64,000 bases of DNA, taken from assembly GCA_964560005.1 (NCBI GenBank), contig CAZLKB010000001.1, positions 77,079 to 141,078 on the forward strand, read 5' to 3'. A program made the position numbers and the translations under genes. This DNA is from an uncultured Gammaproteobacteria bacterium. GTDB lineage: Bacteria > Patescibacteriota > Patescibacteriia > Patescibacteriales > GWC2-42-12. Positions within the stretch are counted from its first letter, which is position 1, and each line of letters starts with the position of its first letter. Below are positions 10,695-62,488 of the stretch, in pieces. The notes under the pieces are model-generated. The model saw nothing but the letters and a program-made list of their open reading frames with translations, made no database searches and was not told the origin of the DNA.

Positions 10695-10841
10695 TACCGG
10701 TTAAGCTGCTAGTTTTAAGCGCATGCAAAATCGTAGCAATTTTTTTTCTTAAAATTATCATTAAATAATTAAAATGAGAAAATTTTAAGAAAAAAATGCC
10801 CAGATTTTGTCTAAGTGAAAAACTAGCATCTTAACCGGGTA
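10695..10841 (+). repeat. Structured element, type B, copy B1
   Basis: Unique arms TACCGGTTAAGCTGCTAG / CTAGCATCTTAACCGGGTA enclose the core TTTTAAGCGCATGCAAAATCG..CAGATTTTGTCTAAGTGAAAAA. Confidence 0.7.
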
Positions 10842-10851
10842 CCAACCCTAA

Positions 10852-11895
10852 TCACATCCTCGCCACCAGCAAATTCAGCCCGGTAAGATAATCGCCTCGG
10901 CCCGACTTAACCAGATAGTCAATCTTTACCAATTGGCTAAAAATATTTTTTAGAGTTGCCAAATTAAAATTATTAGCCTGCGCCAGGCCTTTTTGTAAAA
11001 CAAAAGGGTGTAACTTAAGCTGATTGGCAATCTGGCGCTGGCTTAAGCCTAAATCCACCGCCTGCCTGATAGAAAGTAGTATTCTAAATTGCCTGATAAA
11101 CATATTTAATAGATAATGGCCGTCTAAACCGGACTCAACCAACTCTTCTAACAATTTTATAGCCAAGGCTCTGTTTTTTACGCTGATCGCATCGGTTAAG
11201 GAAAAAATGTTGTCGCTGAAATTTCCCCGTACTAAATTTTTTATATCGGATATATCAATTTCCACCGGCGATTCGGTTAACTTAGCCGTTGCCTTAAAGC
11301 TAATTAATTTATCTAGCTCGTTGCTTATCTGCCAGCCGTCCGAGCCCACCAAGCCAACCAGTAATTCGGCCGCCTTAAGGCTGATTTTACCGCCGCGTGA
11401 AACCACTTCTTTCTTCACCCAACCGGCTAATTCAGTATTGCTTAATAAATTGAAACTGCGGTAAGAATATTTTTGTTCGGCCAAAAATTTTAATAACCCG
11501 GACTGAACTTTGTTCAGCGGCTTATCTCGTCCGTCGGCGTCTATTAAAAACGGCAAAAAAACATTTTTTACTTTCTTCTCCCTGATGTTTGATTCCCAAA
11601 AAATAATAATATTATCCCCGTCCTTCTGGTTTTTATTTTTTAAATAATCCGATAATCTTTCAAGAATTTTCGCGTCTTTGTTGGCGAAAATATCTTCAAT
11701 TATAATTAAGCGCTTTTTAGAAAGCAGCGAGGCCGGACTAATGGCTTCGGCGATCTGAGAGAAAGTCGACTTGGCGCCGGCTAAAACTTTTAGCCCGCTG
11801 CCTGATTTATCTATTTCCCTGAGGTATTTTTCCTTAAGCTCGTTTAATTTTAAGCGGCTTCTAAAATTATCCTCGCCGTAAAGCAATATAATCAT
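10852..11895 (-). CDS. holA: DNA polymerase III subunit delta
   Basis: 347 aa, HolA-like N-terminus MIILLYGEDNFRSRLKLNELKEKY. Confidence 0.7.
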   Translation of the reverse strand: MIILLYGEDNFRSRLKLNELKEKYLREIDKSGSGLKVLAGAKSTFSQIAEAISPASLLSKKRLIIIEDIFANKDAKILERLSDYLKNKNQKDGDNIIIFWESNIREKKVKNVFLPFLIDADGRDKPLNKVQSGLLKFLAEQKYSYRSFNLLSNTELAGWVKKEVVSRGGKISLKAAELLVGLVGSDGWQISNELDKLISFKATAKLTESPVEIDISDIKNLVRGNFSDNIFSLTDAISVKNRALAIKLLEELVESGLDGHYLLNMFIRQFRILLSIRQAVDLGLSQRQIANQLKLHPFVLQKGLAQANNFNLATLKNIFSQLVKIDYLVKSGRGDYLTGLNLLVARM

Positions 11896-11944
11896 AAATC
11901 TTGTTAAAATACTAAAATTTTGTTAAACTTAAATTAGTATAGGA

Positions 11945-12118
11945 GCCGGGTGAAGTAGTTCATTTTGAGAGGCTCCTCGGTGCTTCTCTCGATGCCGAAA
12001 CAGCTAAACTGGGGCGAAATTGTAGTAATTTTTTGGAATTATCCGATCTGTGTTTGTCGGATAATTCCAAAAAATACCCAAATTTCGTCTAAGCGAAAAA
12101 TAAACTACTTCACCCGGC
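11945..12118 (+). repeat. Structured element, type B, copy B2
   Basis: Arms GCCGGGTGAAGTAGTTCA / TAAACTACTTCACCCGGC. Core TTTTGAGAGGCTCC..internal hairpin GGAATTATCCGA..TCGGATAATTCC..AAATTTCGTCTAAGCGAAAAA. Confidence 0.7.
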
Positions 12119-12165
12119 GAAAATATCATCTGTAAATTAATCTAATAACTATCAAAGTTCCATCT

Positions 12166-12339
12166 ATGCAAACCACCCAATGCCCGATCTGCTCAAGCGA
12201 CATTATTATTGAAGAAGGATCGGCGGAAAAAGATCTGGTCACCTGCTTAAACTGCGGTGTGGAGTTGGAAATCGTCACCCTGCACCCCCTGCTCTTAGAA
12301 CCGCTGGAAGAATCAACTGACGAAAAAAATATTGAATAA
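12166..12339 (+). CDS. Small zinc-ribbon protein (LysW-like), 57 aa
   Basis: Below the track size cutoff. MQTTQCPICSSDIIIEEGSAEKDLVTCLNCGVELEIVTLHPLLLEPLEE.. has two CxxC pairs. A terminator follows. Confidence 0.5.
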   Translation: MQTTQCPICSSDIIIEEGSAEKDLVTCLNCGVELEIVTLHPLLLEPLEESTDEKNIE

Positions 12340-12372
12340 AACCTAAATTTATAACTTTTGACGGTAGCCCCT

Positions 12373-12404
12373 AACAAAGCCGTAATGGCTTTGTTTTATT
12401 TTTA
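12373..12404 (+). terminator. Rho-independent terminator
   Basis: AACAAAGCC-GTAAT-GGCTTTGTT followed by TTATTTTT. Confidence 0.55.
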
Positions 12405-12483
12405 CCCTGTTAAATACGATTTGAGCCTATTTTATTGATCTTAAAATATAAGTATAGTACATACAAGTTAAAAAAATTTAAAA

Positions 12484-13830
12484 TTATTTAACAGGGTGAA
12501 CCCTCCTAACTTCCCTTTTAAATAAATTGCCTCTTTCTTTATAATTCTTAAACATACCAAAGCTGGCGCAGGCTGTGGATAATAATACAATATCACCCCT
12601 ACTGGCATTTTCTTTAGCGGTCCTCACGGCATCAACGATATTATCCACTATCTTCATTCTGTCTTTCTTAAACCCAATTTTTAATAGATCTTTTTTTATC
12701 CTTGATGTTGAATCGCCAGCCAGCAAGACAACAAATTTAACTCTATTCACAACCTCTTTAGCCAATTCCTTAAAATCCGCCCCCTTATCGGCTCCGCCCA
12801 GGAATAAAACTATGGGTTGGGTAAACGATTTTAAAGCGATAATGGTTGACTCCGGCGTGGTGGCGAAGCTATCATCATAATATTCAACGCCGTTCAACTC
12901 GCGTACCAATTCCAAGCGATGAGGCAAACCTTTAAAATTAGCCACTGCCTTTTCTATAAACTCCTGTTTTACGCCGATAATTTTCGCCACCTCAATCGCC
13001 GCCGCGACATTTTCCTTATTATGCTCGCCTACCAATTTTGACGGTAATTCTGACTTTTTAAAATACACAATCTTGGCTTTTGTATTTAATTCGTAATCCC
13101 TAATTCCTAATTCATAATTCAAAACCGCCTTTTCTCCGCTCTTTTGGTATTTCACAATATTCATTTTCGCTCCTCGGTATTCTTTTAATGTCCTGTGGTA
13201 ATTCGGATTATTCGGATCGGCCGGCGCTAAATGTTCGGGGTACAAATTAGTGATCACCGCAATCCGCGGGCTCGCCGTCATATCCTCAAGCTGAAAAGAT
13301 GATAACTCTAAGACTACCCAGTCGCTTTTTTTAATTTTATCAATAAAGGCGAACGGCGCCACGCCAATATTACCACCCAGCCAAACTTTTTTGCCGGCTC
13401 GTTTCAATATTTCATAAATCAAACTCGCGGTCGTACCCTTGCCCTTGGTTCCGGTGACGCCGATAATATTTTTAGTCGGGCAAAGATCAAAAAACAATTT
13501 TATAGGACTGGATAATATTGTGCCAGCTTTGATGGTTTGTTTAACGCCCGGGCAATCCATCGGCCAACCCGGAGAACGAAACAAAATATCAAATTTTTCC
13601 AAGCCTTGGTTAAATTTTTTACCTAGCTGCCAAAGAATATATGTCTCTATCATTGCGGGCTCGACCCGCAATCCAGCATTTTCTGTTTTCATCTTCACGC
13701 CCGTTCGCGCGTCGCAAACCGTTATCTCGCATTTCACTTTGTGCTTTAATAAATATCTAACCAAGGCTTGATTCTCAATACCCAGCCCTAAAATTCCAAT
13801 TTTTTTATTATTTAAATTATATAAATTCAT
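12484..13830 (-). CDS. murD: UDP-N-acetylmuramoylalanine--D-glutamate ligase
   Basis: 448 aa. N-terminal Rossmann GILGLGIENQA and P-loop GVTGTKGKGTT, with Mur ligase middle and C-terminal domains. Confidence 0.9.
   Translation of the reverse strand: MNLYNLNNKKIGILGLGIENQALVRYLLKHKVKCEITVCDARTGVKMKTENAGLRVEPAMIETYILWQLGKKFNQGLEKFDILFRSPGWPMDCPGVKQTIKAGTILSSPIKLFFDLCPTKNIIGVTGTKGKGTTASLIYEILKRAGKKVWLGGNIGVAPFAFIDKIKKSDWVVLELSSFQLEDMTASPRIAVITNLYPEHLAPADPNNPNYHRTLKEYRGAKMNIVKYQKSGEKAVLNYELGIRDYELNTKAKIVYFKKSELPSKLVGEHNKENVAAAIEVAKIIGVKQEFIEKAVANFKGLPHRLELVRELNGVEYYDDSFATTPESTIIALKSFTQPIVLFLGGADKGADFKELAKEVVNRVKFVVLLAGDSTSRIKKDLLKIGFKKDRMKIVDNIVDAVRTAKENASRGDIVLLSTACASFGMFKNYKERGNLFKREVRRVHPVK
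13646..13676 (-). repeat. GC-rich hairpin repeat copy inside the murD ORF (in frame)
   Basis: Sense strand GGATTGCGGGTCGAGCCCGCAATGATAG encodes GLRVEPAMI. It is near-identical to the intergenic copy at 29804-29829. Confidence 0.65.
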
Positions 13831-13851
13831 AAATTAAAATTTAGCAGTTAG

Positions 13852-13999
13852 CTAAAACTAATTATTTTTGAAGTGAGGACTGTTCGAGCCACCGCCAGTT
13901 CATAATATTCACACCAAAACAAAGCGTAAAAAGGGATAAATAATCTTTAAATAGCTTTCTGAAAGCGAGTGCCGCAACGAGAAAATAATTAGTTTTAGT
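13852..13999 (+). repeat. Structured element, type A, copy A1
   Basis: Arms CTAAAACTAATTATT / AATAATTAGTTTTAG. Core TTTGAAGTGAGGACTGTTCGAGCCACCGCC..GCGAGTGCCGCAACGAGAAAA. The right arm covers the polA stop codon. Confidence 0.7.
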
Positions 14000-16817
14000 T
14001 AACTGCAATATTCTCCATCTCCCCCCAATTATCCCCCTGCTTGGCGTCAACCACAATCGGCACTTTTAATTTTATAACATCTTCCATAATCTTTTTAATC
14101 TTTTCTGATACTTCGACAACCAAACCATCTTTGACCTCAAACACTAACTCATCATGCACCTGCAGCAACATCCGCACTGGCGCAATTTCTGATCCGCGTT
14201 CCTTCGCGTATAATTCGCTTATCATTCGTGCTACCCTGATCATGGCTATCTTAATTATATCGGCCGCTGTTCCTTGAAGCGGCGTATTGATCGCCATTCG
14301 TTCGGCTGATTTGCGCGCCTGGATGGCCGAAGAGTCAATCTCGGGTAGAAATCTTCTCCGGCCGAACAGAGTTTCAGTATAGCCCTTGGTCCTGGCTAAC
14401 GCAATAGTTTCATCAACAAATTCTTTTACGCCGCTATAGGCGATAAAATATTTTTCTATAAAATCTTTAGCCCGAGCATAAGGAATCTCCGCGCCTTGCG
14501 ATAGCCCGTGCGGCCCTTGGCCGTATAAAATGCCGAAATTAACCGCTTTGGCTTCCCTCCTTAATTCCGGAGTCACTTCTTCTGGTTTGATTTGATTAAT
14601 CTCCGCGGCGGTGGCTGTGTGAATATCTTCGCCCTGCTTAAAAGCGGTAATCAGTTTCTTATCGCCCGACATATGAGCCGCTAACCGCAGCTCTATCTGG
14701 GAATAATCAAGCGATAATAATTTATAACCCTGATCGGCCACGAACGCCCGCCTGATCCTCTTGCCCAATTCAGTCCTAATCGGAATATTCTGTAAATTCG
14801 GTTCGGTTGATGACAACCGCCCGGTAGCGGTTACGGCCTGATTAAAACTGGTATGCAACCGACCGGTTTTTAGATTAACCAGCTTTGGTAGAGACTCTAT
14901 GTAGGTCGTTGATAGTTTTGTCAGCTCGCGGTAGTCCTGGATTAAATCAATAATCGGATGCTGGCCTTTAAGCTTGGCTAACTCATCGGCCCCGGTAGAT
15001 AAGCCGGTTTTACCCTTGCTAATGCCAAGAGCCGGAATAGCCAATTTTTCAAACAAAATTTCGCGGAGTTGCTGGGTGGAATTTATGTTAAAATCCGAGC
15101 CGGCTAAATCATGAATCTTTTTTTCCAGCAAATGTATTTTTTTATCAACTTCGCGGCCGATATCGGCTAAAAATTCTTTATCAATTTTTATGCCGTTTAT
15201 TTCCATGACGGTTAGCACTAAAACCAAAGGCATTTCAATTTCGTAAAATAATTTATCAATCTTTTGTTTTTTTAATTCCGGCACTAATTTTTTTATTAAA
15301 CGATTGGTGAAGTCCGCGTCCTCGCAGGAATAATTATATAGTTTTTCCACCGCTACCTGGCTAAAACTGATTTTATCTTTGCCTCTGCCCAGTAAATCCT
15401 CTTTGGTAATTTTTTGATGATTAAAATAATTAAAAGTTACGGCATCTAAATTATGCTGGCGGCTGCCCGGATTAAGGAGGTACGAAGCTACCATGGAATC
15501 GGCCGCTACGCCTCTTACTATAACGCCTTGGCTGGCCATCACCTCAAGATCATATTTAATATTGTGCCCATACTTTTTTATTTTCTCATTCTCCATTATC
15601 GGCTTCAGCCTCTCCAGCCAAGCGTTACCGGCTTTTTTCTTATTCTGATAATCAAACAAATTACTTCTTGCTTCTGACTTCTTACTTCTAACTTCCAAAT
15701 AATAGGCTTCACCCGCCTGCCAGGAAAAACTTATACCTAAGAGCTCGGTATTGATCGGATCAAAATTCGCCGTTTCAGTGTCAAAGGTAAATTCCTTTTG
15801 CTTAGCCAGGGCTTTGAAAAAACTATTGAATTTTTTTTCACTATCCACCAGCTGGTAAGCAAATGATTCTAGATTTCTTTTGAATTTATCCTCTGCTTCA
15901 TAGTCTGGTTTTTTCTCTAAAGACTTTTTGGCGTCTTGCGCTAGGCCTTGCAGCCTGGGCAGGAGAGACTTGAAGTCCAGTTCATTAAACAGTTTTCCTA
16001 ATTTTTCCTGATCAAATTGGCCGAAACGCGCGTTTTTCAAATCAAAGTCAATTTCAGCATCGCGTTTTATAGTCGCTAAATCCTTACTCATGTAAGCATT
16101 GTCTTTATATTGAATTAGCAGTTCACGAATGCGATCTCTAATCTTGCCGGATTTAATGTTCAGGTAGACATTATCCAAAGTCTTAAAAGCTTGCAGCAGT
16201 TCAATCGCCGTCTTTTCGCCGATGCCCTTAACTCCGGGAATATTATCCGAAGGGTCGCCGCGCAAGGCTTTAAAATCAATCATCTGCCCGGGCTCAAGCC
16301 CGTATCTTTGCTTGACCGCCTTTTCGTCGTATATCATGGAGTCGGTTAAGCCGCGCTTCATGGTATAGACCTTGGTATGACCGTTAATCAACTGCAGAGT
16401 GTCCATATCGCCGGTAACAATAATTTTTTCAACCGCGCCGTCAACCAGACTGGCTAAAGTGCCGATTAGATCATCGGCTTCAAATCCGGCCAATTCAAAA
16501 ATCGGAATATTAAAGCCTCTGGCGATTTCCTTAACGCGGGGAATTTGCGCATACAATTCATCCGGCGCCTTGACTCTGGTGGCTTTATAGCCGGCGAATT
16601 GCTTATGGCGAAATGTCTTTTCCTTTCTATCTAAAGTTAAAACCACATATTCCGGTTTAAACTCGCGCAAAGCCTTTATTAGAACCGAGGTAAAGCCATA
16701 AACCGCGTTTATAATTTCGCCGGTCTTAGTGGTTAAGGGCGGCAAAGCGTGAAAACTCCGATGGATCAGCGCATTGCCGTCAATAATCATTAATGTTTCT
16801 TTTTGTTGTTTACTCAT
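13995..16817 (-). CDS. polA: DNA polymerase I
   Basis: 940 aa with 5'-3' exonuclease, 3'-5' exonuclease-like and family A polymerase domains (RRxAKxxNFGxxYG, QVHDELVFE). Confidence 0.95.
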   Translation of the reverse strand: MSKQQKETLMIIDGNALIHRSFHALPPLTTKTGEIINAVYGFTSVLIKALREFKPEYVVLTLDRKEKTFRHKQFAGYKATRVKAPDELYAQIPRVKEIARGFNIPIFELAGFEADDLIGTLASLVDGAVEKIIVTGDMDTLQLINGHTKVYTMKRGLTDSMIYDEKAVKQRYGLEPGQMIDFKALRGDPSDNIPGVKGIGEKTAIELLQAFKTLDNVYLNIKSGKIRDRIRELLIQYKDNAYMSKDLATIKRDAEIDFDLKNARFGQFDQEKLGKLFNELDFKSLLPRLQGLAQDAKKSLEKKPDYEAEDKFKRNLESFAYQLVDSEKKFNSFFKALAKQKEFTFDTETANFDPINTELLGISFSWQAGEAYYLEVRSKKSEARSNLFDYQNKKKAGNAWLERLKPIMENEKIKKYGHNIKYDLEVMASQGVIVRGVAADSMVASYLLNPGSRQHNLDAVTFNYFNHQKITKEDLLGRGKDKISFSQVAVEKLYNYSCEDADFTNRLIKKLVPELKKQKIDKLFYEIEMPLVLVLTVMEINGIKIDKEFLADIGREVDKKIHLLEKKIHDLAGSDFNINSTQQLREILFEKLAIPALGISKGKTGLSTGADELAKLKGQHPIIDLIQDYRELTKLSTTYIESLPKLVNLKTGRLHTSFNQAVTATGRLSSTEPNLQNIPIRTELGKRIRRAFVADQGYKLLSLDYSQIELRLAAHMSGDKKLITAFKQGEDIHTATAAEINQIKPEEVTPELRREAKAVNFGILYGQGPHGLSQGAEIPYARAKDFIEKYFIAYSGVKEFVDETIALARTKGYTETLFGRRRFLPEIDSSAIQARKSAERMAINTPLQGTAADIIKIAMIRVARMISELYAKERGSEIAPVRMLLQVHDELVFEVKDGLVVEVSEKIKKIMEDVIKLKVPIVVDAKQGDNWGEMENIAVN

Positions 16818-24568: not shown

Positions 24569-24699
24569 AATAAATAATGAAAAATGTAAAAATCAAAGTT
24601 CAAAGTGACAATTTAAAAATGTAAAATGCTTTAATTTAAAATTTTTTAATTTTTAATTTTGCATTGTCATTTTCCATTTTGATTTTTTAATTTTTAACT
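24569..24699. repeat. AT-rich low-complexity inverted-repeat spacer (AAAATGTAAAAT / TGTCATTTT theme)
   Basis: Fills the whole rpmI-rplT gap. The right half TTTGCATTGTCATTTTCCATTTTGAT is shared with 33340-33444 and 63815-63955. Confidence 0.55.
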
Positions 24700-26747: not shown

Positions 26748-26833
26748 TGGTGGCTCAGGTGGGAGTCGAACCCACATGCCCATAGGACGCAACATTTTAA
26801 GTGTTGTGCGTATACCAGTTCCGCCACTGAGCC
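26748..26833 (-). tRNA. tRNA-Leu(TAA)
   Basis: Acceptor GGCTCAG/CTGAGCC, loop CTTAAAA, long variable arm, CCA encoded. Confidence 0.9.
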
Positions 26834-27307: not shown

Positions 27308-27390
27308 ATATAATATTATATCATAATGGTAATGATATAACAATATACATACTAATACGTATACCTGTTCTATCTTTTCAATAAGTCGAG

Positions 27391-27770
27391 TGGAGATGAG
27401 GGGAATTGAACCCCTGTCTAATAAACTTCTTAAAGCATATTTACAGATTAGATCGATTTGTTTTCTCGCTACCGCCGTAAAAACCGAACAAAATCGGCCG
27501 TAGCAGAGCTTATTTTTTAAGATAACCGATAAAGCGATCGATTATTCGAGCCTATGATTTTACACTCGTATCCGGCGTATAGGCGTCAGCCGGGCGAATG
27601 GTTGCGGCTATTAAGCGGCAACAGGGGCAAAGGCCGGCATTTTCCAAGAAAATGTCGCTTTGCTCAATAAGTTTTTGACACTTATTATTTTCGAGCGCGA
27701 TTAAAGTGACGGCTCGAGACGCACTCCTGAATGCTTTAAAAAAATTTTATTATCGATGCCTAGCATCCCC
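27391..27770 (-). ncRNA. ssrA: tmRNA (SsrA)
   Basis: The 5' GGGGATG pairs with the 3' CATCTCC (G3:U70). T-arm AGGGG-TTCAATT-CCCCT. The internal tag frame ends ..PAFAPVAA then TAA TAG (27608-27658). smpB is adjacent. Confidence 0.85.
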
Positions 27771-27774: not shown

Positions 27775-27916
27775 TAAAATTTTTAATTTTCAATTTTTAA
27801 TTTTTATACAATTTCCAACGATTTAATGATTAAATTTTCAAAATAAGTCGCTATCTGTTTATGTAATTGAAAATTAATCCATTGTTTGAAAATTGAAAAT
27901 TAGAAATTGAAAATTC
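27775..27916. repeat. AT-rich 7-nt-periodic inverted-repeat spacer (GAAAATT theme)
   Basis: TTAATTTTCAATTTTTAATTTTT on the left versus GAAAATTGAAAATTAGAAATTGAAAATT on the right. Confidence 0.55.
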
Positions 27917-28380: not shown

Positions 28381-28507
28381 GTAAAATTTTTAATTTTCAA
28401 TTTCTAATTTCTAAACAATCAACAAATGAATTAATTTCCAATTTATTTTGACATTGAAAATTGTATGATTAGAAATTGTTTGAAAATTGAGAATTGAAAA
28501 TTGAAAA
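28381..28507. repeat. AT-rich 7-nt-periodic inverted-repeat spacer (GAAAATT theme)
   Basis: TTAATTTTCAATTTCTAATTTCTAAAC on the left versus GTTTGAAAATTGAGAATTGAAAATTGAAAATT on the right. Confidence 0.55.
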
Positions 28508-29794
28508 TTACTTAACCACATTCCACTCCCTTAATTTCTCCATAACCTTTTTACCGGTTAAGTTATTAGCCACATAATCGCGGTATGACCGGCTCTTTAT
28601 CCTGTCGGCAATTTTTTGATCGCCCTGATATTGCTTTAAAACCTCTTCAATCGCTTTGTCTATATCATGTTCATGGGCTTGGATTTTTTCTAAATTCGCC
28701 ACTTCTCTGACGATTAAAGAAACCTTCACTCGCTTAACCGCGTCCGGCGTCATCTCCAGCATCATCTGCTCGCGGGTCTTTTTTAAGTGCAGTAAATAAT
28801 CTTCAAACTTACCGCCCTGTTTTTTCACGCCATACTCTAGTTCCGACATCATCACCTCGCCCTCATGCTTGATTAAAATCTCCGGTATCTCGCCGAATTT
28901 CGCGCCGGCGATTATTTTATCCAACATGGCGACTTCACTGGCTCGCTCTATTTCCTGCTTTTTTTCCGCCATCAGGCTTTTTTTAATATTACTCTTTAAT
29001 TCTTCCGCCGACTTTAAGCCGAACCCTTTAGCGAATTCTTCATTAACTTCCGGCAAGATCCGCTTATATATTTCTTTGACTTTAACCCTGAATTCGGCCA
29101 TTTTTCCGGCTAGGTTTTTATCATGGTGCTCGGCCGGATAGGGCAGGCTGAATTCTCGGACATCGTTTTTCTTCGCGTTAATAATCTGCTTATCAAAACC
29201 TGGAATAACATAATTTTTTCCGATAATCACGCTGGCGCCCTTGCCTTGGCCGCCTTCAACCGGAACTTTGTCTAAAAAAATCTCTATATCTAAAATTACC
29301 CGATTGCCGGCTTCGGCCGGAGCTTCGGAAATCGTTTCGCTGGCGCGCATTTCTCTTAATTCAGCTATTAATTTCTCCACTTCCTGGTCTTTAACTTCCG
29401 CCTCCGCCTCCTTTATTTTTAAATCTTTATATTTCCCCAGTTTGGTTTCGGGTAGCATGGTTAAAACTACTTTATACTCCATCGGATTATCGGGCGCGAG
29501 CTTAGTGATATTGATTTGCGGCTGGCCGACTATTTGTTCTTTCACATTATCTCTAATCGCCTTATCAGCGGTTTTATCAATGGCGATGCGCGCGGCTTCT
29601 TCTAATATCGTCATCTCGCCGATTTTAGCTTTTAAAATTTCGTACGGCGCCTTGCCCGGACGGAAGCCTTCAATTTTCACTTCCATAGAAACTTTTTCCG
29701 CTCCGCGCGAAACATACGGCTTAAACTCATCCGCCGTCAATTCCACGGTTAATTCAATTTGCGACTTACCTAGATCTTTTTTGGTTATGTTCAT
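28508..29794 (-). CDS. tig: Trigger factor
   Basis: 428 aa. N-terminal ribosome-binding motif GFRPGKAP and trigger factor domain order. Confidence 0.9.
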   Translation of the reverse strand: MNITKKDLGKSQIELTVELTADEFKPYVSRGAEKVSMEVKIEGFRPGKAPYEILKAKIGEMTILEEAARIAIDKTADKAIRDNVKEQIVGQPQINITKLAPDNPMEYKVVLTMLPETKLGKYKDLKIKEAEAEVKDQEVEKLIAELREMRASETISEAPAEAGNRVILDIEIFLDKVPVEGGQGKGASVIIGKNYVIPGFDKQIINAKKNDVREFSLPYPAEHHDKNLAGKMAEFRVKVKEIYKRILPEVNEEFAKGFGLKSAEELKSNIKKSLMAEKKQEIERASEVAMLDKIIAGAKFGEIPEILIKHEGEVMMSELEYGVKKQGGKFEDYLLHLKKTREQMMLEMTPDAVKRVKVSLIVREVANLEKIQAHEHDIDKAIEEVLKQYQGDQKIADRIKSRSYRDYVANNLTGKKVMEKLREWNVVK

Positions 29795-31132: not shown

Positions 31133-31142
31133 GTACAGTAAG

Positions 31143-31304
31143 CAGTGGGGTGAAATATGTTATTTTTTGAAACGAGGATTGTTTGAGCCACCACCAATTA
31201 ATGCAATTCACACCTAATAGTCTTTATAGCCACTGACAGTTTTATTTAAGCTAACATCTGGCGAGTGCCGCAGTGAAAAAAATTACATATTTCACCCCAC
31301 TGCC
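31143..31304 (+). repeat. Structured element, type A, copy A2
   Basis: Arms GCAGTGGGGTGAAATATGTTA / ATTACATATTTCACCCCACTGC. Core TTTTTTGAAACGAGGATTGTTTGAGCCACCACC..GGCGAGTGCCGCAGTGAAAAAA. Confidence 0.7.
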
Positions 31305-33339: not shown

Positions 33340-33444
33340 ATATAATGTAAAATTTAAAAATCAAAATGCAAAATGACAGTTTAAAATGTAAAATTAATAA
33401 TTTTTAATTTTGCATTGTCATTTTACATTTTGAGATTTACATTT
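33340..33444. repeat. AT-rich low-complexity inverted-repeat spacer (AAAATGTAAAAT theme)
   Basis: AATCAAAATGCAAAATGACAG versus TTTGCATTGTCATTTTACATTTTGAG. It fills the hppA-nusA gap. Confidence 0.55.
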
Positions 33445-34887: not shown

Positions 34888-34930
34888 ATTGTTTTGATAA
34901 TTTATTAATTTATTACTCAACTTATTATAT

Positions 34931-35008
34931 AATCCAAATACTACAAAAATTATCCGAATATTACAAATACTTTTTGTAGTATTTGAATAATTTTTGTAGT
35001 ATTCGCAT
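34931..35008. repeat. Four-box TACTACAAA module
   Basis: TCCAAATACTAC, CCGAATATTAC, GTAGTATTTGA, GTAGTATTCGC. It lies 44 nt upstream of the nusA ATG. Confidence 0.6.
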
Positions 35009-35165
35009 TATACTAAAGAAAAAGGCTAGTTTGAATTTAATCAACTAGCCTTAGTATCTATATACTAGCATTATATAATATAGAAGTCAACAATTTTTTT
35101 CCCCCTTAATAAAAGGGAATGAAGGGAGATTTATGCCTTCTAATTCAAGTTAAAATAAAATATAT

Positions 35166-36005: not shown

Positions 36006-36148
36006 GGCAATCGGGGGAAAATTTGTTTTGAGCGCATACAAAATTGTATTATTTTTTCTTAAAATTATCCAGACCAATTTAATAAAATTTTAAGAAAAAA
36101 TACACAAATTTTGTCGTAAGCGAAAAACAATTTTTTCCACCGATTGTC
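36006..36148 (+). repeat. Structured element, type B, copy B3
   Basis: Arms GGCAATCGGGGGAAAATTTG / CAATTTTTTCCACCGATTGTC. Core TTTTGAGCGCATACAAAATTGTA..ACAAATTTTGTCGTAAGCGAAAAA. Confidence 0.7.
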
Positions 36149-37180: not shown

Positions 37181-37193
37181 ATTTTTACTAGTT

Positions 37194-37339
37194 GGCATGG
37201 GGAGGGCGGGCATTTTAAGTGAATACAAAATTGTATTATTTTTTTATTAAAATTGCTCATAATATAAATATATAGACAATTTTAATAAAAAAATACTCAA
37301 ATTTTGTCCTGAACGAAAAATGCCCGCCCTTCCCATGCC
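37194..37339 (+). repeat. Structured element, type B, copy B4
   Basis: Arms GGCATGGGGAGGGCGGGCA / TGCCCGCCCTTCCCATGCC. Core TTTTAAGTGAATACAAAATTGTA..CAAATTTTGTCCTGAACGAAAAA. An orphan 3' core follows at 37340-37364. Confidence 0.7.
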
Positions 37340-37385
37340 AAATTTCGTCTTAAGCGAGAAAAAGACCTATTTGTCCCGCAACGGT

Positions 37386-39984: not shown

Positions 39985-40167
39985 AAGGGAGTCTAAAATA
40001 TTTAATTTTTGAAGTGAGGACTGTTTGAGCCCCCACCATTTTTTCTCCTTATGGCCCAAACTATTAGAAATTTCAATTTTTTATATTTATTTTACTTTTA
40101 CATGAGTACTTAAAAAATGGTGTGGGCGAGTTCCGCAACGAAAAAATTAATTATTTTAGACTCCCTT
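39985..40167 (+). repeat. Structured element, type A, copy A3
   Basis: Arms AAGGGAGTCTAAAATATTTAA / TTAATTATTTTAGACTCCCTT. Core TTTTTGAAGTGAGGACTGTTTGAGCCCCCACC..GGTGTGGGCGAGTTCCGCAACGAAAAAA. Confidence 0.7.
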
Positions 40168-47765: not shown

Positions 47766-47820
47766 AGGTTGAAAAGTTAATTTACATTTATTATAAATTG
47801 TGCTAATTGCAGAGGTAAAG

Positions 47821-47916
47821 TTTTGGCTAAATTTATTTATTTTTGAAGCGAGGACTGACCGGCCGGCACATAATGAATTTGATCCGCAGCGAAAAAATAA
47901 ATGAATTTAGCCAAAA
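47821..47916 (+). repeat. Structured element, type A, minimal copy A4
   Basis: Arms TTTTGGCTAAATTTATTTAT / ATAAATGAATTTAGCCAAAA. Core TTTTGAAGCGAGGACTGACCGGCCGGCAC..GATCCGCAGCGAAAAAA. Confidence 0.7.
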
Positions 47917-47961
47917 CTATAATCATCAGCTAACACAATCCATATTTATATTATACCATTA

Positions 47962-55577: not shown

Positions 55578-55827
55578 AATATTTGTCTTCCTTAACAAAA
55601 ATTAAATAAAATATGAATATACCTGAATAAAAATTTTTATACTTTCATTTTACCACTTTCCCCAAATTAGTTCTAACCTCCCATTCCCCTATAGAAAAAC
55701 TGCCCTTACGTGAGGGCAGTTTTTTATTGGGTCGCGTAGTGGAGGATATCGGAACTATTTTAAAGAATACCACTATTAATATCGACATTCCAGATTTAAT
55801 TAAAATAAAATAAATTTAACCATAACA

Positions 55828-56775
55828 AACAGTTAGGTGATATAAAGGATATGGAACAAATTTAGTATAATTAAATTGTGAAGCAATTTAATTATAACTA
55901 TAATTTGCATCCATATGCTCAAATTAAAATTAGATTTTAACGACCGGCAGCTGCAAACTAAATTACGAAAGATTGTTTTTAAAAATGGCCGGTTAAAATG
56001 CCCCCGTTGCGGTTCGTTCATAATTAGGAAGGTTAAATCGGAGAAAAGATATTACTGCAAACGCTGCCGTAAAAAGTTTTCTGCTTTGTCATCCAGCTGG
56101 CTGAAAAATATCAAAATACCTTTGTCTCAATTTACTGTTTTATTACAGCTCTGGTTGAAAGGTTACGGTGTGGCTGAAGCCAATGAACTGACTAAGGTAT
56201 CAGTGCCAACTATTAGGAAATATTACAGTTTGTTTAGGTTAAATATCGTAAAATCCATTGATTTTAAAGCAGAAAACAACGTTCAGGTCGACGAAGCCTA
56301 TTTCGGCAGGTTTCGCAAAGACGGAAACATCTATCATAGCTGGAGGACTTATCATTCACCACCCAAGACCTGCGTCGCCGGCATCGGTTGCCCGGTTAAC
56401 GGGCAATTAGCTACCAGGGTGATAGAAGGAACCAAGGGAGAAAAGATCAGGCGGTTTATTCGTGAACAGGTTCCAACCAACATCCATGTTTATTCTGACG
56501 GCAGTTATATCTATACCAATCTGCGCCAGGACTATCATCACACTTCGCAAACCCATGATCTGGGATTTGAAAACGCCTATTACATCGAATCTTGCTGGTC
56601 CTGGATGAAAAGAAAACTGTTTAAACAATACCACCATTTCCACAAAAAGAATGCCGTAGATTATGTGTCAGAATTGACCTGGCGATTTAACACAAGAAAA
56701 ATGCAGAAAAATGCCTTAGATTATTTACAAAAATCACTTTGACTGTTCCACATCCTTTACATGACCCAAACAGTT
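55828..56775 (+). mobile_element. IS1595-family insertion sequence
   Basis: Imperfect terminal inverted repeats: AACAGTTAGGTGATATAAAGGATATGGAACA (55828-55858) versus the rc of 56744-56775, AACTGTTTGGGTCATGTAAAGGATGTGGAACA. One transposase ORF lies between them. Confidence 0.65.
55915..56742 (+). CDS. IS1595-family transposase
   Basis: N-terminal zinc ribbon CPRCGS..CKRCRKKF and DDE region VQVDEAYFG..VYSDGSYIY..ESCWSWMKR. Confidence 0.8.
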   Translation: MLKLKLDFNDRQLQTKLRKIVFKNGRLKCPRCGSFIIRKVKSEKRYYCKRCRKKFSALSSSWLKNIKIPLSQFTVLLQLWLKGYGVAEANELTKVSVPTIRKYYSLFRLNIVKSIDFKAENNVQVDEAYFGRFRKDGNIYHSWRTYHSPPKTCVAGIGCPVNGQLATRVIEGTKGEKIRRFIREQVPTNIHVYSDGSYIYTNLRQDYHHTSQTHDLGFENAYYIESCWSWMKRKLFKQYHHFHKKNAVDYVSELTWRFNTRKMQKNALDYLQKSL

Positions 56776-56843
56776 GACAAAATAATTTTATTATGTTATT
56801 ATATTCTGTTCAAATACAAAAACAAACAAAAACGGAGGTTACT

Positions 56844-57245: not shown

Positions 57246-57252
57246 ATAATAT

Positions 57253-57723: not shown

Positions 57724-57875
57724 CCCTTAACTATACCACCCAAACCCCAAAATGTAAAACAATAGAGTTGTGGTATCATCTAATGCACTACCCTCATACT
57801 TTCTTTTTTCTTTAAACAAAAGTTGCCTCATCGGCAACTTTTATAATATAACAGAATTTGCTAAAAAGTCAACCT

Positions 57876-58406: not shown

Positions 58407-58488
58407 ATAATTTTATTTAATTCGTAATAATTCGCGTCTAATTCGTTATTTCCATTATACCAGAAAATTCGATAATTTCAATACAAAA

Positions 58489-60156
58489 TTATAAACTAAC
58501 TCCACTATATGCAATAGCCCGAACAGTGTCCCAATCTAAAGCCGATTTCGGCAGATACTTATATACTTTTACGAACACACCAATACCTGCCTGCTCCAGA
58601 CTAAAATCGCGGCTGGCCGGCCGTAAGCCATAAGCCATTAGATCAATCGCTTCTTTATCATTAGTATTTTCCATATCCGCCTCTCGGCCATAGACTTTTT
58701 TAAACTCCGCTTTAGCTCTTGCTTCTGCCGCCGAATTGACCGTTGAAGGTAGCTGATTATTGCTGATTTTTATAATATTTTCCCAGTCAGTTTGAGTTTC
58801 CGGCGTATAACCAAAGGTTGACTTAAAAGAATTGAGCACACCGGCGCGCTCGCCCGCGCCTAACCTGGCGGTGCCAGGAGTTCCCTGCGCTATGAAATCA
58901 GGCGTCTGGCCGCTGATAATGCCGGCGGCTTCCGCGGCAGCACTGTCTAATAATTGCTCGGCCGAAGAGCTGGCGATTTTTACGCCCAATACTTCAGCCT
59001 CTAAATCAGCTTGATCGCCGACATCGGAAACCGGTTTAATACTTTCAACGGTTTCCGCCTCCGGCGCGACGCAAGCTCTCTTTCTCTCCGCATCTTGCTC
59101 GGCCGTTAAAGTGCAATTTACCGGAAAAATTGTTAGAACATTTCTATATTGCCAATTGTCAACGCAAGTATTTTGCCAAATGTCATATTCTACGCTCCGG
59201 CAGTCAACTGGAATAAAAATTCCGCCGCCGCCGGAAGACGGAGCCGGGTCCGGAGCGGGAATTTGATCCGGAATCGGCTGAGGAATATCATAATAGCCGA
59301 TGGGAAAACTCTTGCCGGCCAGAGCGATAACCGCGTATGGCGTCATAGCCTTATTATTAAACTCCGGATTGCCGCTAGGATCCATCCACCAAAAACCGCC
59401 GTCCGCGCCATCTTGCAATAATTGTAAATGAGTTAACGGACTATTGCCATTTTTTATCCAAGCGGCTGGCTGCTCGCCGATTCTATAAATAGCGGAGATT
59501 ACCCAGGCGTCAGAGCCGGAATCGCTGGCCGTGCCCCAGACCGGATCGTTCATAAACCCGCCATCGTCGTTTTGCCGAGTATGGAGAAAGGCAACGGCGT
59601 TAGTGATAACCGCGCTACCCGCATCCAGCCCCATTTCTAAAAGCGCCATTACAGCCGCGGCCGTGTCATTACTGCCGCTTGAGCCGCCGACCGCGTAGCC
59701 CCAGCCGCCATCGGCATTTTGATTGGCCAATAAAAAATCCTTGGCCGCGATCGCTTCAGCCGAGCCTGTCTTTTTGATTGAGGCCAAAGCTAAAATAGAC
59801 CAGATATCGTCGTTTAATAAAGTGGCGTCGCCCATTTGGGTGCCGTCATAGTAGGATTGTAATTTGGCGACATAATCAATACTGCCAAAAGTGGTTGGGT
59901 TTTCCCCGGCCGCGGCCAAAGCTAAAATAGTTTTGGCATAATCATTGGTCGGATTAAAGCCTCCTTCAGCTACGCTTTTCAGATGATCAATCGGCACGCC
60001 GGTTTCGCCGGCCGCGACTAGAGCCTGGGTAATCCAGGCGTCCGGAGTTTGGTTTTTTAAATAATCCACGGCTTCCGGTAGGCCCGCCGAGGCGGCGTTA
60101 GGCAGATAGATTGCTACAAGCGCAAAAAATAAAATTAAAAAAATTTTTGTTTTCAT
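58489..60156 (-). CDS. Secreted protein with prenyltransferase/terpene-cyclase-like alpha/alpha-toroid repeats
   Basis: Signal peptide MKTKIFLILFFALVAIYLPNAASA. Repeats QNADGGWGY, RQNDDGGF and QDGADGGFWW. The track ORF extends to 60195. Confidence 0.55.
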   Translation of the reverse strand: MKTKIFLILFFALVAIYLPNAASAGLPEAVDYLKNQTPDAWITQALVAAGETGVPIDHLKSVAEGGFNPTNDYAKTILALAAAGENPTTFGSIDYVAKLQSYYDGTQMGDATLLNDDIWSILALASIKKTGSAEAIAAKDFLLANQNADGGWGYAVGGSSGSNDTAAAVMALLEMGLDAGSAVITNAVAFLHTRQNDDGGFMNDPVWGTASDSGSDAWVISAIYRIGEQPAAWIKNGNSPLTHLQLLQDGADGGFWWMDPSGNPEFNNKAMTPYAVIALAGKSFPIGYYDIPQPIPDQIPAPDPAPSSGGGGIFIPVDCRSVEYDIWQNTCVDNWQYRNVLTIFPVNCTLTAEQDAERKRACVAPEAETVESIKPVSDVGDQADLEAEVLGVKIASSSAEQLLDSAAAEAAGIISGQTPDFIAQGTPGTARLGAGERAGVLNSFKSTFGYTPETQTDWENIIKISNNQLPSTVNSAAEARAKAEFKKVYGREADMENTNDKEAIDLMAYGLRPASRDFSLEQAGIGVFVKVYKYLPKSALDWDTVRAIAYSGVSL

Positions 60157-60202
60157 AAAATTAATTATTTTATTATTAAAATTATTTATTTTCATATTTT
60201 AT

Positions 60203-60244
60203 TGTTGTCATTGCGAGGAGCCCGTACTCGGGCGACGCGGCAAT
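60203..60244 (-). repeat. GC-rich hairpin repeat variant (..CTCGCAATGACAACAA)
   Basis: The rc reads ATTGCCGCGTCGCCCGAGTACGGGCTCCTCGCAATGACAACAA. Confidence 0.5.
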
Positions 60245-60266
60245 TTCATTAACGGGGTAGAATAAA

Positions 60267-60818
60267 TTAAAAACTTTTTTTCTCATACTTCCATTCTATA
60301 ACATCATTATTTTTTAATTTATAATATGACACGCCGACTTGAGCCGGTTGGCCGTTAACATAATATAGCCAATTTTTACCGGCCGGGTCATTCTTAACGC
60401 CATTAATTTCTTCAATGAAAAACCCCAGTCTGGAATAATCACGACTCTTAAAATCAATTTTATTCTGCTCTTTTAACAACCGCATTAAATCATAGACCGT
60501 GCTATCCGGGGAAACTTGCGCTTCATATTTAACTCCGCTGATTGCTAGATTGGCTAAAATTTTCTTGTTCGGCTCGGACGCCGGAGCTTTGGCTTGGTCC
60601 TGATTTAGCGCTCGTTCATTTTCTTGAGCCGCCTGCTCAGCCGATTTAGTAATGATTTTAGCCTGATTAAGCGCATTTGCTAAACCGCCGGGCGCGTCAT
60701 TACCGGCCAAGGACATTAAACCTACTTCACTGTTTGTCAAATGCTTCACGGTTGAAACGCCAACCCAGGCTAATAGCAGAAAAACTAAAAAAAATATGGC
60801 TAAATTTTTTACTTTCAT
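60267..60818 (-). CDS. Membrane-anchored DUF4430-domain protein (transcobalamin beta-domain-like)
   Basis: C-terminal TVYDLMRLL..GFFIEEINGVKNDPAGKNWLYYVNGQPAQVGVSYYKLKNNDVIEWKY. Start taken at the ATG at 60818. The upstream ATG at 60836 lies inside a repeat. Confidence 0.7.
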   Translation of the reverse strand: MKVKNLAIFFLVFLLLAWVGVSTVKHLTNSEVGLMSLAGNDAPGGLANALNQAKIITKSAEQAAQENERALNQDQAKAPASEPNKKILANLAISGVKYEAQVSPDSTVYDLMRLLKEQNKIDFKSRDYSRLGFFIEEINGVKNDPAGKNWLYYVNGQPAQVGVSYYKLKNNDVIEWKYEKKSF

Positions 60819-60831
60819 ATAATCTATCGCC

Positions 60832-60856
60832 GTCATCCCCGCGAAAGCGGGGATCC
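60832..60856 (-). repeat. GC-rich hairpin repeat, short form (GGATCCCCGCTTTCGCGGGGATGAC)
   Basis: 7-bp stem TCCCCGC/GCGGGGA. Overlaps the longer track ORF start. Confidence 0.55.
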
Positions 60857-60960
60857 AGAAATGCTTAATTACGAAAAACCCGCCCTGCTTCGAGCGGATC
60901 CGATAAATTTAACATTATTAAATTTATTTTCTTTGCTCGAAGAATAACTATATAAGTTAG

Positions 60961-61052
60961 TTATCAGCGTTCTGGCTTGTTCCCCCACCATCTTGGTGAA
61001 GGACATTACAGTTGCGGCACAGCGCCGGGTTTACACCGGACTTTCCTGATAA
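60961..61052 (-). promoter_or_regulatory. Cobalamin riboswitch-like aptamer (compact form)
   Basis: Minus strand: P1 TTATCAG/CTGATAA. Core GGAAAGTCCGGTGTAAACCCGGCGCTGTGCCGCAACTGTAA and B12-box-like AAGCCAGAACGCTG. Confidence 0.7.
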
Positions 61053-61068
61053 CTATTGTTGTTTCTAT

Positions 61069-61096
61069 ATTATATAACTTTTGTAGAAAGAGTCAA
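61069..61096 (-). promoter_or_regulatory. Canonical sigma70-type promoter for the riboswitch operon
   Basis: On the minus strand: TTGACT (rc 61091-61096), 16 nt, TATAAT (rc 61069-61074). The predicted start is about 10 nt before P1. Confidence 0.5.
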
Positions 61097-61100
61097 TCAG

Positions 61101-61172
61101 TACGCCCAGGGGGAATCGAACCCTCATATCCAGCTTAGAAGGCTGGTGTTCTATCCATTGAACTATGGGCGC
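61101..61172 (-). tRNA. tRNA-Arg(TCT)
   Basis: Acceptor GCGCCCA/TGGGCGT (G1.U72), loop CTTCTAA, T-arm GAGGG-TTCGATT-CCCCC with one mismatch. Confidence 0.8.
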
Positions 61173-61211
61173 AAATTTAAATATGGTTTTAGATTCACTT
61201 CACTTTAGAAA

Positions 61212-61276
61212 GAGCTGGTGTTCCCCGCCCGAACGTACCGTTCGGTACGGGCGGGTATCCATTGAACTATGGGCGC
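61212..61276 (-). pseudogene. tRNA-Arg 5'-half copy interrupted by a 32-nt GC palindrome
   Basis: GCGCCCATAGTTCAATGGATA, then the insert at 61224-61255, then GAACACCAGC. Identity to the intact gene ends in the anticodon loop and there is no T-arm. Confidence 0.5.
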
Positions 61277-61412
61277 AAATAAAATAAAATTGCCTAAGAT
61301 AGGCAATAACCCAATCTTAACGGCTAAAACTTAATTTGTCAAAAGAAAATGAAATGAATTGAAAATTAAAACACTGAAAATTCATTGAAAATTGATACTT
61401 GAAAATTAAAAA

Positions 61413-62336
61413 TTATTTCTTCCTCCTCCCATGAAACGCCTTATGCACGTCCCTTAGTTGCTGATCGGTGATATGAGTATAAACTTGGGTGGTAGTGATG
61501 GAGGAGTGCCCGAGCATGGCCTGCACGCTCCTTATGTCCGCGCCGTTCATCAGTAAATCGGTGGCATAGCTATGGCGCATGGTGTGAGGGGTAACCTGCT
61601 TGGTGATGCCGGCTACCTTGGCATATTTTTGCACTAACCGTTGCACGCTTCTCGGTGTAAGCCCCTCTTCTTTTTCGCGTCCGCCTGAAGCTTTGTCATG
61701 GCTGATAAATAAATAGGGATTAATATCATGCCTGACTTTTAAATAATCTTCAATTGAATGCCTGGCCTCGTCGGATAAAAACACTACGCGCAGTTTAGAA
61801 CCTTTTCCTCGCACCGTGAATTCATCTTTTTTTAAATTAATGTTTTCAATTTTTAATTTACATAATTCGGAAACGCGAAGCCCGGTGGAAAAAAACAATT
61901 CTAAAATCGCTTTATCTCGTTTTCTGATAATTTCCGGCAGTTCAATCTTAAACGGCGCCTCCAATATCCGCTCCAAGTCAGAGCCTTCTAAAAAATCTAC
62001 CTGCCTTTGCTGCTGCTTAGCCAATTCCACTTTTTCCGGCTCTAAAGATTTTATGTCGGTCTTCACCAGATATTTTAAAAACCCGCGCAGAGCGATTAAA
62101 TGATAATTTTGCGTATTTTTTTTCAAACCCTTATTTTCATCGCTTCCCAGTCTATTTAAAAATAAGCGGTATTTATGCACTAATTCTTTGCTAATTTTAG
62201 CCGGTGTGCTTACCCCCGCCTCTTTGGCGAAGGCGGCAAATCTATTTAAATAAAAATCATAATTATCAGTAGTATTGCGCGACAAACCCTTTTCCACCTC
62301 CATATATTCAATAAATTGTTTTATATATTTTTCCAT
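61413..62336 (-). CDS. Tyrosine recombinase, XerC/XerD family
   Basis: RHSYATDLL..LGHSSITTTQVYTH catalytic region. Start moved from TTG (62357) to the ATG at 62336. Confidence 0.85.
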   Translation of the reverse strand: MEKYIKQFIEYMEVEKGLSRNTTDNYDFYLNRFAAFAKEAGVSTPAKISKELVHKYRLFLNRLGSDENKGLKKNTQNYHLIALRGFLKYLVKTDIKSLEPEKVELAKQQQRQVDFLEGSDLERILEAPFKIELPEIIRKRDKAILELFFSTGLRVSELCKLKIENINLKKDEFTVRGKGSKLRVVFLSDEARHSIEDYLKVRHDINPYLFISHDKASGGREKEEGLTPRSVQRLVQKYAKVAGITKQVTPHTMRHSYATDLLMNGADIRSVQAMLGHSSITTTQVYTHITDQQLRDVHKAFHGRRKK

Positions 62337-62348
62337 AGGATCTATATG

Positions 62349-62488
62349 GCCGGACAAAGGTTTTAGTTTTGAGCGGCTCCTCTGTGCTTTCCTCGGAGCT
62401 AAAAAGGGGACGAGGGAGAAATTGTTGCATTTTTTAATTAAAAATGCCCAAATTTCGTCTAAGCGAAAAACTAAAACCTTTGTCCGGC
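62349..62488 (+). repeat. Structured element, type B, copy B5
   Basis: Arms GCCGGACAAAGGTTTTAG / CTAAAACCTTTGTCCGGC. Core TTTTGAGCGGCTCC..AAATTTCGTCTAAGCGAAAAA. Confidence 0.7.

Follow-up and report, generated by a model that had tools for sequence, protein, structure and literature searches.

A lineage-restricted family of strand-polar hairpin repeats, probably mobile, in a Patescibacteria chromosome

A 64-kb stretch of contig CAZLKB010000001.1 (hereafter the window, whose coordinates are used unless another locus is named) contains nine structured hairpin elements that all read in the same direction. We consider it about an even proposition that these elements, which fall into two related types, A and B, form one lineage-restricted group of hairpin repeats of a non-autonomous kind, similar to miniature inverted-repeat transposable elements (MITEs) and to REPINs, and that their polarity is derived from replication. 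The elements are probably mobile DNA. Their orientation bias is real, though not absolute, and replication is slightly favoured over transcription as its cause.

The elements were searched for on both strands with two covariance models, R1 for type A, built from 16 copies in the window and its relatives, and R2 for type B, built from eight copies. With R1 the five type A copies of the window score 70–104 bits on the plus strand versus 23–56 bits on the minus strand, with R2 the four type B copies score 104–157 versus 40–47 bits, and neither model finds a tenth full copy in the window on either strand. An earlier note, made from the letters of this stretch, had described nine elements with asymmetric ends that all lie on the plus strand; the hairpins and the two-strand searches confirm this (Table 1), the uniform orientation (9/9) having p = 0.004 in a two-sided binomial test and the density being about one element per 7 kb. 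The elements read 5'-TTTT(G/A)A...GAAAA-3' on the plus strand. The ends given in that note require some widening: type A copies 10697 and 37192 begin with TTTTAAG and not TTTTGAG, and the 3' end CARCGAAAAAA is not the sole form, AAGTGAAAAA, GAACGAAAAA, CAACGAGAAAA and CAGTGAAAAAAA occurring as well.

Each element is an imperfect palindrome of 85–190 bp with terminal arms of 20–27 bp and a T4-7/A5-7 collar, and its core is conserved and asymmetric. Type A has the order arm-UUUU-GA-GC-GCAU-ACRAAAUU-GUA-helix/loop/helix-CCC-AAUUUYGU-CUUAA-GC-GA-AAAA-arm, in which GA/GA, GCAU/CUUAA and GUA/CCC form non-palindromic core loops; the minimal form is ~90 nt long with arms of ~16–20 nt, the long forms add an apical hairpin, and subtype A2 (window copies 11945 and 62349) carries on its 5' side an additional module of ~40 nt. 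Type B, which likewise occurs in short and long forms, has the order arm (23–27 nt)-U5-GAA-NN-GA-GGACU... ...AGUKCC-GCA-NN-GA-A5-arm, and its NN/NN pairs covary (GU/AC, AC/GU, GC/GC). The terminal ends are approximately GGCCGGAC... in type A and GCAGTT... in type B, while the arm consensus is approximately GGCCGGACAAAGRTTTTRG in type A and GCAGTTRGCTNRAAYTAKTWA in type B. The arms are drifted versions of a common consensus, not random sequence, and both arms of a copy change jointly. Near-consensus type A arms are found in three different genomes (window copy 62349, L004 and copy 20537 of L040, where L numbers designate loci fetched from other genomes), the arms of 62349 and L004 being nearly identical.

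Pairing between the two halves is maintained through extensive sequence change. Among the 19 type A copies that passed the alignment cut-off, 95% of cells are paired and 22 of 35 pairs have changed on both sides; the cells changed on both sides number 124, as against 37 in shuffled alignments (0 of 500 shuffles as high), and control alignments slid out of register are 41–57% paired. The eight type B copies give a similar picture: pairing extends to 97% of cells, and both sides have changed in 20 of 30 pairs. One-sided changes account for just 13 type A cells, against the 124, and the changes are overwhelmingly from one Watson-Crick pair to another. The loops are affected as well: the tandem G.A loop has given way to Watson-Crick pairs in L006 (5977–6108), L025 (5336–5470) and L040 (8201–8325) and to other bases in further copies of the L040/L059 genome, and in a partial copy, L038 87–207, which is missing its outer 5' part, GUA/CCC now reads GGG/CCC, because the remaining 5' half is the exact complement of the matching 3' half. 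Such arm-to-arm loop conversions look like the footprints of template switching between inverted-repeat arms, a process that, according to two published accounts, homogenises inverted-repeat arms, preserves hairpins and is able to turn the spacer round (PMC8604942, PMC8794818). Arm complementarity may be kept by arm-to-arm template switching in replication, by selection of copies that can fold, or by the two together, and spacer inversion by the same route would also account for the occasional flipped copy. That most copies have nevertheless kept their asymmetric loops in the face of template switching implies selection on the loops, most simply as a recognition surface for a trans-acting protein.

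It is in these loops that the direction of the element lies. The earlier note had pointed to a tandem G.A/A.G junction that exists only in the plus-strand reading, and such a junction (UUUU-GA-GC / GC-GA-AAAA) is present in three of the five window type A copies; of all 21 type A copies, however, no more than 12 have it, the supposed strand-fixing motif being absent from the other nine. Because the G.A loop is not universal, because the plus-strand RNA has no asymmetry in G.U pairs or folding energy, and because a consensus scan of 30.9–48.1 kb revealed no shared promoter or terminator, we conclude that polarity is carried by the non-palindromic internal loops.

Orientation was compared with strand composition in 30 full copies, drawn from partial genomes (the window and five or six other genomes, with two sets of loci lacking a genome assignment); the gene maps of the fetched loci are longest-open-reading-frame approximations. 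The plus reading is on the C-rich strand in 25 of the 30 copies, or ~83% (p = 0.0003), a bias that is not peculiar to the window. The rule holds for all nine type B copies and for 16 of 21 type A copies, and outside the window for 16 of 21 copies (p = 0.027). When the coding effect in the window is separated from the replication effect, the replication component of GC skew on the plus strand comes to -0.06 for the whole, to -0.10 when third codon positions are taken and to -0.05 for intergenic DNA. The plus strand therefore has the composition of a lagging strand, in agreement with the excess of genes on the minus strand, which holds 53 of the 73 open reading frames (ORFs) and 77% of coding length in a greedy ORF map of the window, and ~84% of ORFs between 10.7 and 62.5 kb by our own count from the ORF list. 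The description of the elements as opposite to most genes is accordingly true of the window, but they occupy every kind of spacer there (five tandem with both genes on the minus strand, two convergent and two divergent).

Since most genes are co-oriented with replication, the skew rule and an antisense rule are confounded, and a possible though rather unlikely alternative is that the same mobile hairpin repeat owes its polarity to transcription, the link with skew being a by-product of gene-strand bias. Sense copies in operons might be selected against, for example if the plus reading were harmful in messenger RNA, or the transcribed strand might guide insertion. The tandem-gene spacers are consistent with this, as 15 of 20 copies there are antisense to both neighbours (p = 0.04), and seven of the nine window copies adjoin the stop codon of a minus-strand gene, five within ~10 nt and two at ~40 nt; L004 6789 and L011 1018 are likewise antisense although they stand on the G-rich strand. 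In convergent and divergent spacers, however, where gene direction predicts nothing and transcription should leave no preference, six of six copies follow the skew (p = 0.03). Two copies of L040, 16809 and 20537, conform to the skew although they have the sense orientation relative to lagging-strand genes, and the existence of five sense copies means that the sense orientation is tolerated. Neither reading has a terminator-like T-run or a conserved promoter.

The distribution of the elements is that of a mobile repeat. Judged from its genes, the window is chromosomal DNA of a bacterium of the Candidate Phyla Radiation (CPR), namely a Falkowbacteria-like member of the Patescibacteria, because these are housekeeping genes (polA, holA, murD, rlmN, nusA, a pyrophosphatase gene, dinB, tig, smpB and ribosomal protein genes) and because the relatives of its PolA, ~64–79% identical, are labelled Candidatus Falkowbacteria or Patescibacteria. 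A scan with the type A 3'-core pattern over one genome from each of 185,579 species returned true type A elements in only four assemblies, all Patescibacteria: GW2011_GWC2_42_12 (eight loci, with type B also), JAUSEG01, JAQVNC01 and JBAXOH01. The remaining 27 loci of the scan lack the element architecture, and one Patescibacteria match, L008, is perhaps a stray 3' remnant. A close relationship is evident for GW2011_GWC2_42_12, whose locus L038 is syntenic with window 19.4–25.7 kb at 78–89% amino-acid identity. BLAST gave no phage or plasmid match, pattern scans of IMG/VR gave no type A match and nine matches to a type B 16-mer, none with the element architecture, and a generic search for arm-TTTT-GA...GA-AAAA-arm revealed no additional types.

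Among eight relatives in which the syntenic polA region was compared (PolA ~78–79% identical), only one, the ERZ27315056 contig (L040 and L059), contains copies, five of type A; the other seven are without full elements in ~15–23 kb each though they retain the genes and spacers, L053 keeping only a remnant. The spacer between polA and murD holds a type B element in the window and measures 7 nt in L040 and 1 nt in L042, where the element is absent. In the window the 3' arm of that element contains the polA stop codon and the last three polA codons (13995–14006), the window PolA exceeds that of three relatives by two residues, and the type B insertion seems to have rewritten the 3' end of polA. 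The spacer that follows the pyrophosphatase gene is occupied by type B in the window but by type A in L059, while the spacer that precedes rlmN has type A in both, with unrelated arms and opposite orientation. The L053 remnant adjoins the same tRNA gene as an L040 copy, and these loci have the downstream flank in common; type A copies or the remnant abut tRNA genes in three genomes. Cores are near-identical between genomes whose genes are 76–82% identical in DNA sequence, degraded material exists in the form of the L053 remnant and the fragment at 37340, and full copies are located only in intergenic spacers. In combining site polymorphism with core conservation the elements behave as a non-autonomous mobile repeat does when its core is under selection, and not as a conserved housekeeping RNA.

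For replication-derived polarity we envisage that a trans-acting protein able to read the asymmetric loops would recognise the element, and that the element would be moved, in the form of a folded single strand. Single-stranded DNA (ssDNA) is asymmetrically exposed at replication forks, which could make insertion, or survival after insertion, dependent on orientation and so produce the polarity, and the orientation against genes would be a by-product of the co-orientation of genes with replication. If the rule known for IS608 applied, the active strand would be the minus reading, on the G-rich lagging-strand template. Of the two options offered in the earlier note, it is this one, elements dependent on ssDNA with a replication-strand bias, that fits better, through the mobile-repeat behaviour and the bias with skew, even though its mobiliser and target motif were not found.

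Several observations weigh against this explanation. The polarity rule is violated by five of the 30 copies; the two antisense copies on the G-rich strand, L004 6789 and L011 1018, depart from it, L011 3212, L022 1443 and L059 1216 violate both the skew and the antisense rule, and where gene direction and skew conflict the score is 2:2. Replication direction was taken from GC skew alone, which over loci of 6–8 kb is a weak proxy, neither an origin nor a terminus was located, and the evidence on both polarity and mobility comes from partial genomes. The RAYT/TnpA(Y1)-type or other mobilising gene that the earlier note suggested looking for was not found: Pfam and NCBIfam scans detected no Y1/HUH transposase among the ORFs of the window, which covers 64 kb of a 299-kb contig, and tblastn with IS608 TnpA and Escherichia coli RAYT queries gave no match in ~0.6 Mb of DNA, the fetched loci included. 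Neither a target-site duplication nor a conserved target motif is seen at the flanks of the 30 copies, so that transposition itself is putative. The only insertion sequence (IS) in the window, of the IS1595 family, was rejected as a parent, its terminal repeats matching the arms at ~10–11 of 19 positions in a hand alignment and the elements being without its 8-bp duplication. A xerC/D-like gene beside copy 62349 was considered as the mobiliser and set aside, as it looks like an ordinary housekeeping recombinase gene.

It would be quite a long shot that replication-strand-polar hairpin elements represent an unrecognised class in CPR bacteria, either moved by an ssDNA enzyme with no relation to the known Y1/HUH transposases or co-opted by the host as orientation-dependent signals of the chromosome or of replication, with a protein reading the loops of the folded ssDNA.

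The other option of the earlier note, that the elements are independently transcribed RNAs, would make them structured small RNAs, antisense or intergenic, expressed from the plus strand, with the G.A and other loops as RNA-protein recognition motifs, and we regard this as improbable. Strong pairing covariation, conserved unpaired nucleotides in the core and a slightly more stable plus-strand RNA fold in eight of the nine window copies would all be expected of such an RNA, but the difference between strands disappears in the larger sample: in minimum-energy folds of 27 copies the plus fold is the more stable in 17, by a mean of -1.2 kcal/mol (Wilcoxon p = 0.14), and G.U pairs number 63 on the plus and 69 on the minus strand, when a selected plus RNA should tolerate G.U on the plus strand and avoid the mirror A.C. 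The 124 cells changed on both sides, against 13 one-sided G.U intermediates, form the pattern of a DNA palindrome, the tandem G.A is missing from nine type A copies, five copies have the other orientation, and presence is patchy among close relatives. No Rfam family matches at gathering or E-value thresholds, generic microRNA-precursor models alone matching, far under threshold; a consensus scan of 30.9–48.1 kb found no common promoter or terminator, its sole promoter-like match within an element being on the minus strand of copy 36008; and the flanks of all 30 copies have no conserved motif. Nothing supports a plus-strand-specific RNA as the functional form. Two narrower roles were also rejected, that of an intrinsic terminator or promoter (there is no T-run after the hairpin in either reading, and a -10-like TACAAT occurs only in the minus reading of type A at non-conserved spacing) and that of a kink-turn (the GA/GA loop is without a 3-nt bulge).

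Equally improbable are non-selfish structural sites that serve the host and functionally require their orientation (3'-end stabilisers of messenger RNA, insulators, binding sites for nucleoid or replication proteins, lagging-strand priming or fork signals), for although the core is better conserved than neighbouring coding DNA, the copies are dense for a small genome (nine in 64 kb) and polarity tracks strand composition as in chromosome-organising motifs, full elements are missing from seven of the eight syntenic relatives, whose genes and spacers are otherwise retained, in other relatives a palindromic family of another kind occupies these spacers, positions are not conserved and 17% of copies are inverted.

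Table 1. Hairpin elements and other features of the window and of related loci. Scores are bits of model R1 or R2, plus strand / minus strand; MFE, minimum free energy.
Feature	Position	Strand	Context	Details
Type A, long form	10697..10838	+	convergent spacer, rpsT (+) / holA stop (-)	starts TTTTAAG; hairpin MFE -55 kcal/mol; R1 95.6 / 46.5
Type A, subtype A2	11945..12118	+	divergent spacer, holA (-) / Zn-ribbon gene (+)	extra 5' module ~40 nt; 22-nt arms, 95% complementary; R1 76.5 / 23
Type B	13844..14006	+	murD/polA spacer	R2 156.9 / 40.4
Type B	31142..31303	+	directly 3' of H+/Na+-pyrophosphatase stop codon	R2 147.5 / 46.5
Type A, long form	36008..36146	+	3' of rlmN stop codon	GA/GA loop visible in MFE structure; R1 101.4 / 41
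Type A	37192..37341	+	5' of rlmN	starts TTTTAAG; 25-nt arms, 96% complementary; R1 104 / 56
Type A 3'-end fragment	37340..37364	+	adjoins the 37192 element	AAATTTCGTCTTAAGCGAGAAAAAG; found by pattern match; partner arm not found
Type B, long form	39985..40167	+	convergent spacer, + gene / dedA-family gene (-)	26-nt arms, 96% complementary; R2 143.4 / 39.7
Type B, short form, subtype B2	47819..47918	+	3' of dinB stop codon	29-nt arms, 93% complementary; R2 104.1 / 46.6
Type A, subtype A2	62349..62488	+	divergent spacer, xerC/D-like gene (-) / rpsO (+)	22-nt arms, 100% complementary; R1 70.5 / 23.6
Type A copies or remnant at tRNA genes	L040 8185–8330; L053 9238–9330; L003 600–780		abut tRNA genes	
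IS1595-family IS	55826–56777			26-nt terminal inverted repeats, 85% complementary; IS also delimited as 55834–56769; 8-bp direct repeat AAACAGTT at both ends
IS1595-family transposase	55915–56742	+	within the IS	DDE_Tnp_IS1595 and Zn-ribbon domains
High-GC segment	1–6100		terminates at tRNA-Leu (5986–6068)	dapB, pyrF, fucose-isomerase-like protein
HNH-like ORF, 168 aa	26837–27343	-	flanked by tRNA-Leu (26748–26833) and tmRNA (27388–27770)	C-terminal motif DHINGD...NLRILCPNCH
AdoCbl riboswitch	60919–61072	-	5' of DUF4430, prenyltransferase-like and DUF6580 genes	52.4 bits
Second palindromic family	6154–6241; 34928–35012; 63054–63147			ATAATCCAAATACTACAAAA...TTTGTAGTATTTGGATTAT
AT-rich inverted repeats	24580–24695; 33344–33437; 63842–63933; 27778–27908; 28385–28509		intergenic	e.g. 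AAATGTAAAAATCAAA...GACA, AATTTTTAATTTTCAATTT
Hairpin	3541–3612			23-nt arms, 96% complementary
Other palindromic repeat	L041 21198–21350; L042 17075–17315, 21038–21163; L053 21396–21558		relatives without types A/B	GTCATTGCGAG...GAAGCAATCTC...GAGATTGCTTC...CTCGCAATGAC
L038 hairpin	6041–6197 of L038			19-nt perfect arms (AGAGACTGTGGTCGAATGC...); R1 31

Besides the elements and protein genes, the window contains the tmRNA gene and seven tRNA genes. Its first ~6 kb (1–6100) have a GC content of 0.49–0.52 versus ~0.40 elsewhere, and this segment may represent either a genomic island inserted beside a tRNA gene or a chimeric join made in assembly. The motif of the HNH-like ORF was spotted by eye and has no match in Pfam, and the AdoCbl riboswitch is barely over its gathering score. 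Palindromic repeats of other kinds are also present. The second family in the window gives weak generic Rfam microRNA-precursor matches, the hairpin at 3541–3612 is 79% identical to L038 2274–2337 and may be a repeat shared with that genome, and in relatives without types A and B the other palindromic repeat of Table 1 occupies the same spacers. The long hairpin of L038 has a different core and matches R1 weakly, and it may be a third element type of GW2011_GWC2_42_12.

Among the small palindromic mobile repeats, to which it probably belongs, the family is unusual in layout and shows a strand bias that is clear. CPR genomes are small and tightly packed, we found no description of their repeat content (hairpin repeats, MITEs) in the searchable literature, and the present family is both dense and lineage-restricted; its copies would serve as a marker of strains and of genome evolution in uncultured CPR organisms. 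They would also cause annotation errors, since one copy supplies the stop codon of polA. The co-evolving arms provide a natural test case for the maintenance of pairing in long hairpins, and the strand bias, if tied to replication, would allow replication direction to be read in fragmentary metagenome-assembled genomes and points to a putative system of single-strand DNA mobilisation still to be found.

Among known systems REPINs, hairpin-forming doublets of REP (repetitive extragenic palindromic) sequences for which the Y1/HUH transposase RAYT is the mobiliser, offer the closest parallel in several respects. Their hairpins too have changes on one side compensated on the other (PMC3116915), and both families are extragenic, multicopy, lineage-restricted repeats of ~100 nt that fold into one long hairpin in ssDNA or RNA. 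Tandem arrays of REP sequences have opposite orientation at two chromosomal positions ~2 Mbp either side of the origin (PMC3116915). REPINs have two inverted REP units, with 16-mers and REP palindromes conserved at the ends around a variable spacer, whereas in our alignments it is the centre that is conserved and the arms that vary; a terminal REP unit of the GTAG type is lacking here, no RAYT gene was found in the window or the fetched loci, and the host belongs to the Patescibacteria, while the REPINs described come for the most part from Pseudomonas and E. coli and in one case from a cyanobacterium, Nostoc punctiforme (PMC3116915). The IS200/IS605 elements insert into the lagging-strand template, and the orientation of their copies is biased in relation to the replication fork (PMC5027513). 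The elements described here resemble them in the lack of a detectable target-site duplication, in a presumed dependence on a folded single strand and in a replication-linked bias as judged from GC skew, but have one element-long palindrome instead of two differing subterminal hairpins at the left and right ends, no flanking motif at 30 copies comparable to the fixed tetra- or pentanucleotide 3' of which IS200/IS605 elements insert, and no TnpA gene in the DNA searched here.

Similarities to other systems are more partial. With classical MITEs the elements share small size, lack of coding capacity, terminal inverted repeats, intergenic location, multiple copies, short and long forms and presence/absence polymorphism. 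In classical MITEs (Correia, ERIC, RUP, Nezha) the terminal repeats are conserved and correspond to those of a parent IS, target-site duplications are present and strand polarity is generally absent. Unlike such DDE-type MITEs, the present elements have strand polarity and are without repeats matching a parent IS or a target-site duplication. Integron attC sites, according to two reports, are substrates of recombination, imperfect single-strand hairpins conserved in structure more than in sequence, in which unpaired bases select the strand and replication orientation matters (PMC5371416, PMC3458562). The present elements are alike in being imperfect hairpins that keep structure more than sequence and, presumably, in the relevance of unpaired bases and orientation, but assignment to attC was rejected, as by our own reading the ends do not resemble RYYYAAC...GTTRRRY boxes, R''/L''-L'/R' boxes are lacking, and the copies neither form a cassette array nor adjoin an intI gene but are dispersed among housekeeping genes. 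TIGR-Tas systems, considered for the CPR host and the G.A motif, consist of tandem edge/loop repeat arrays with 8–12 nt spacers beside a tas gene with a Nop domain (PMC12045711), and were likewise rejected, the copies here being dispersed singletons and scans of the window finding no Nop-domain gene. Searches of Rfam, of phage and plasmid collections and of the searchable literature yielded no description of the family. In its workings it comes nearest to REPINs and the single-strand elements of the IS200/IS605 type, yet by the differences set out above it fits the definition of neither.

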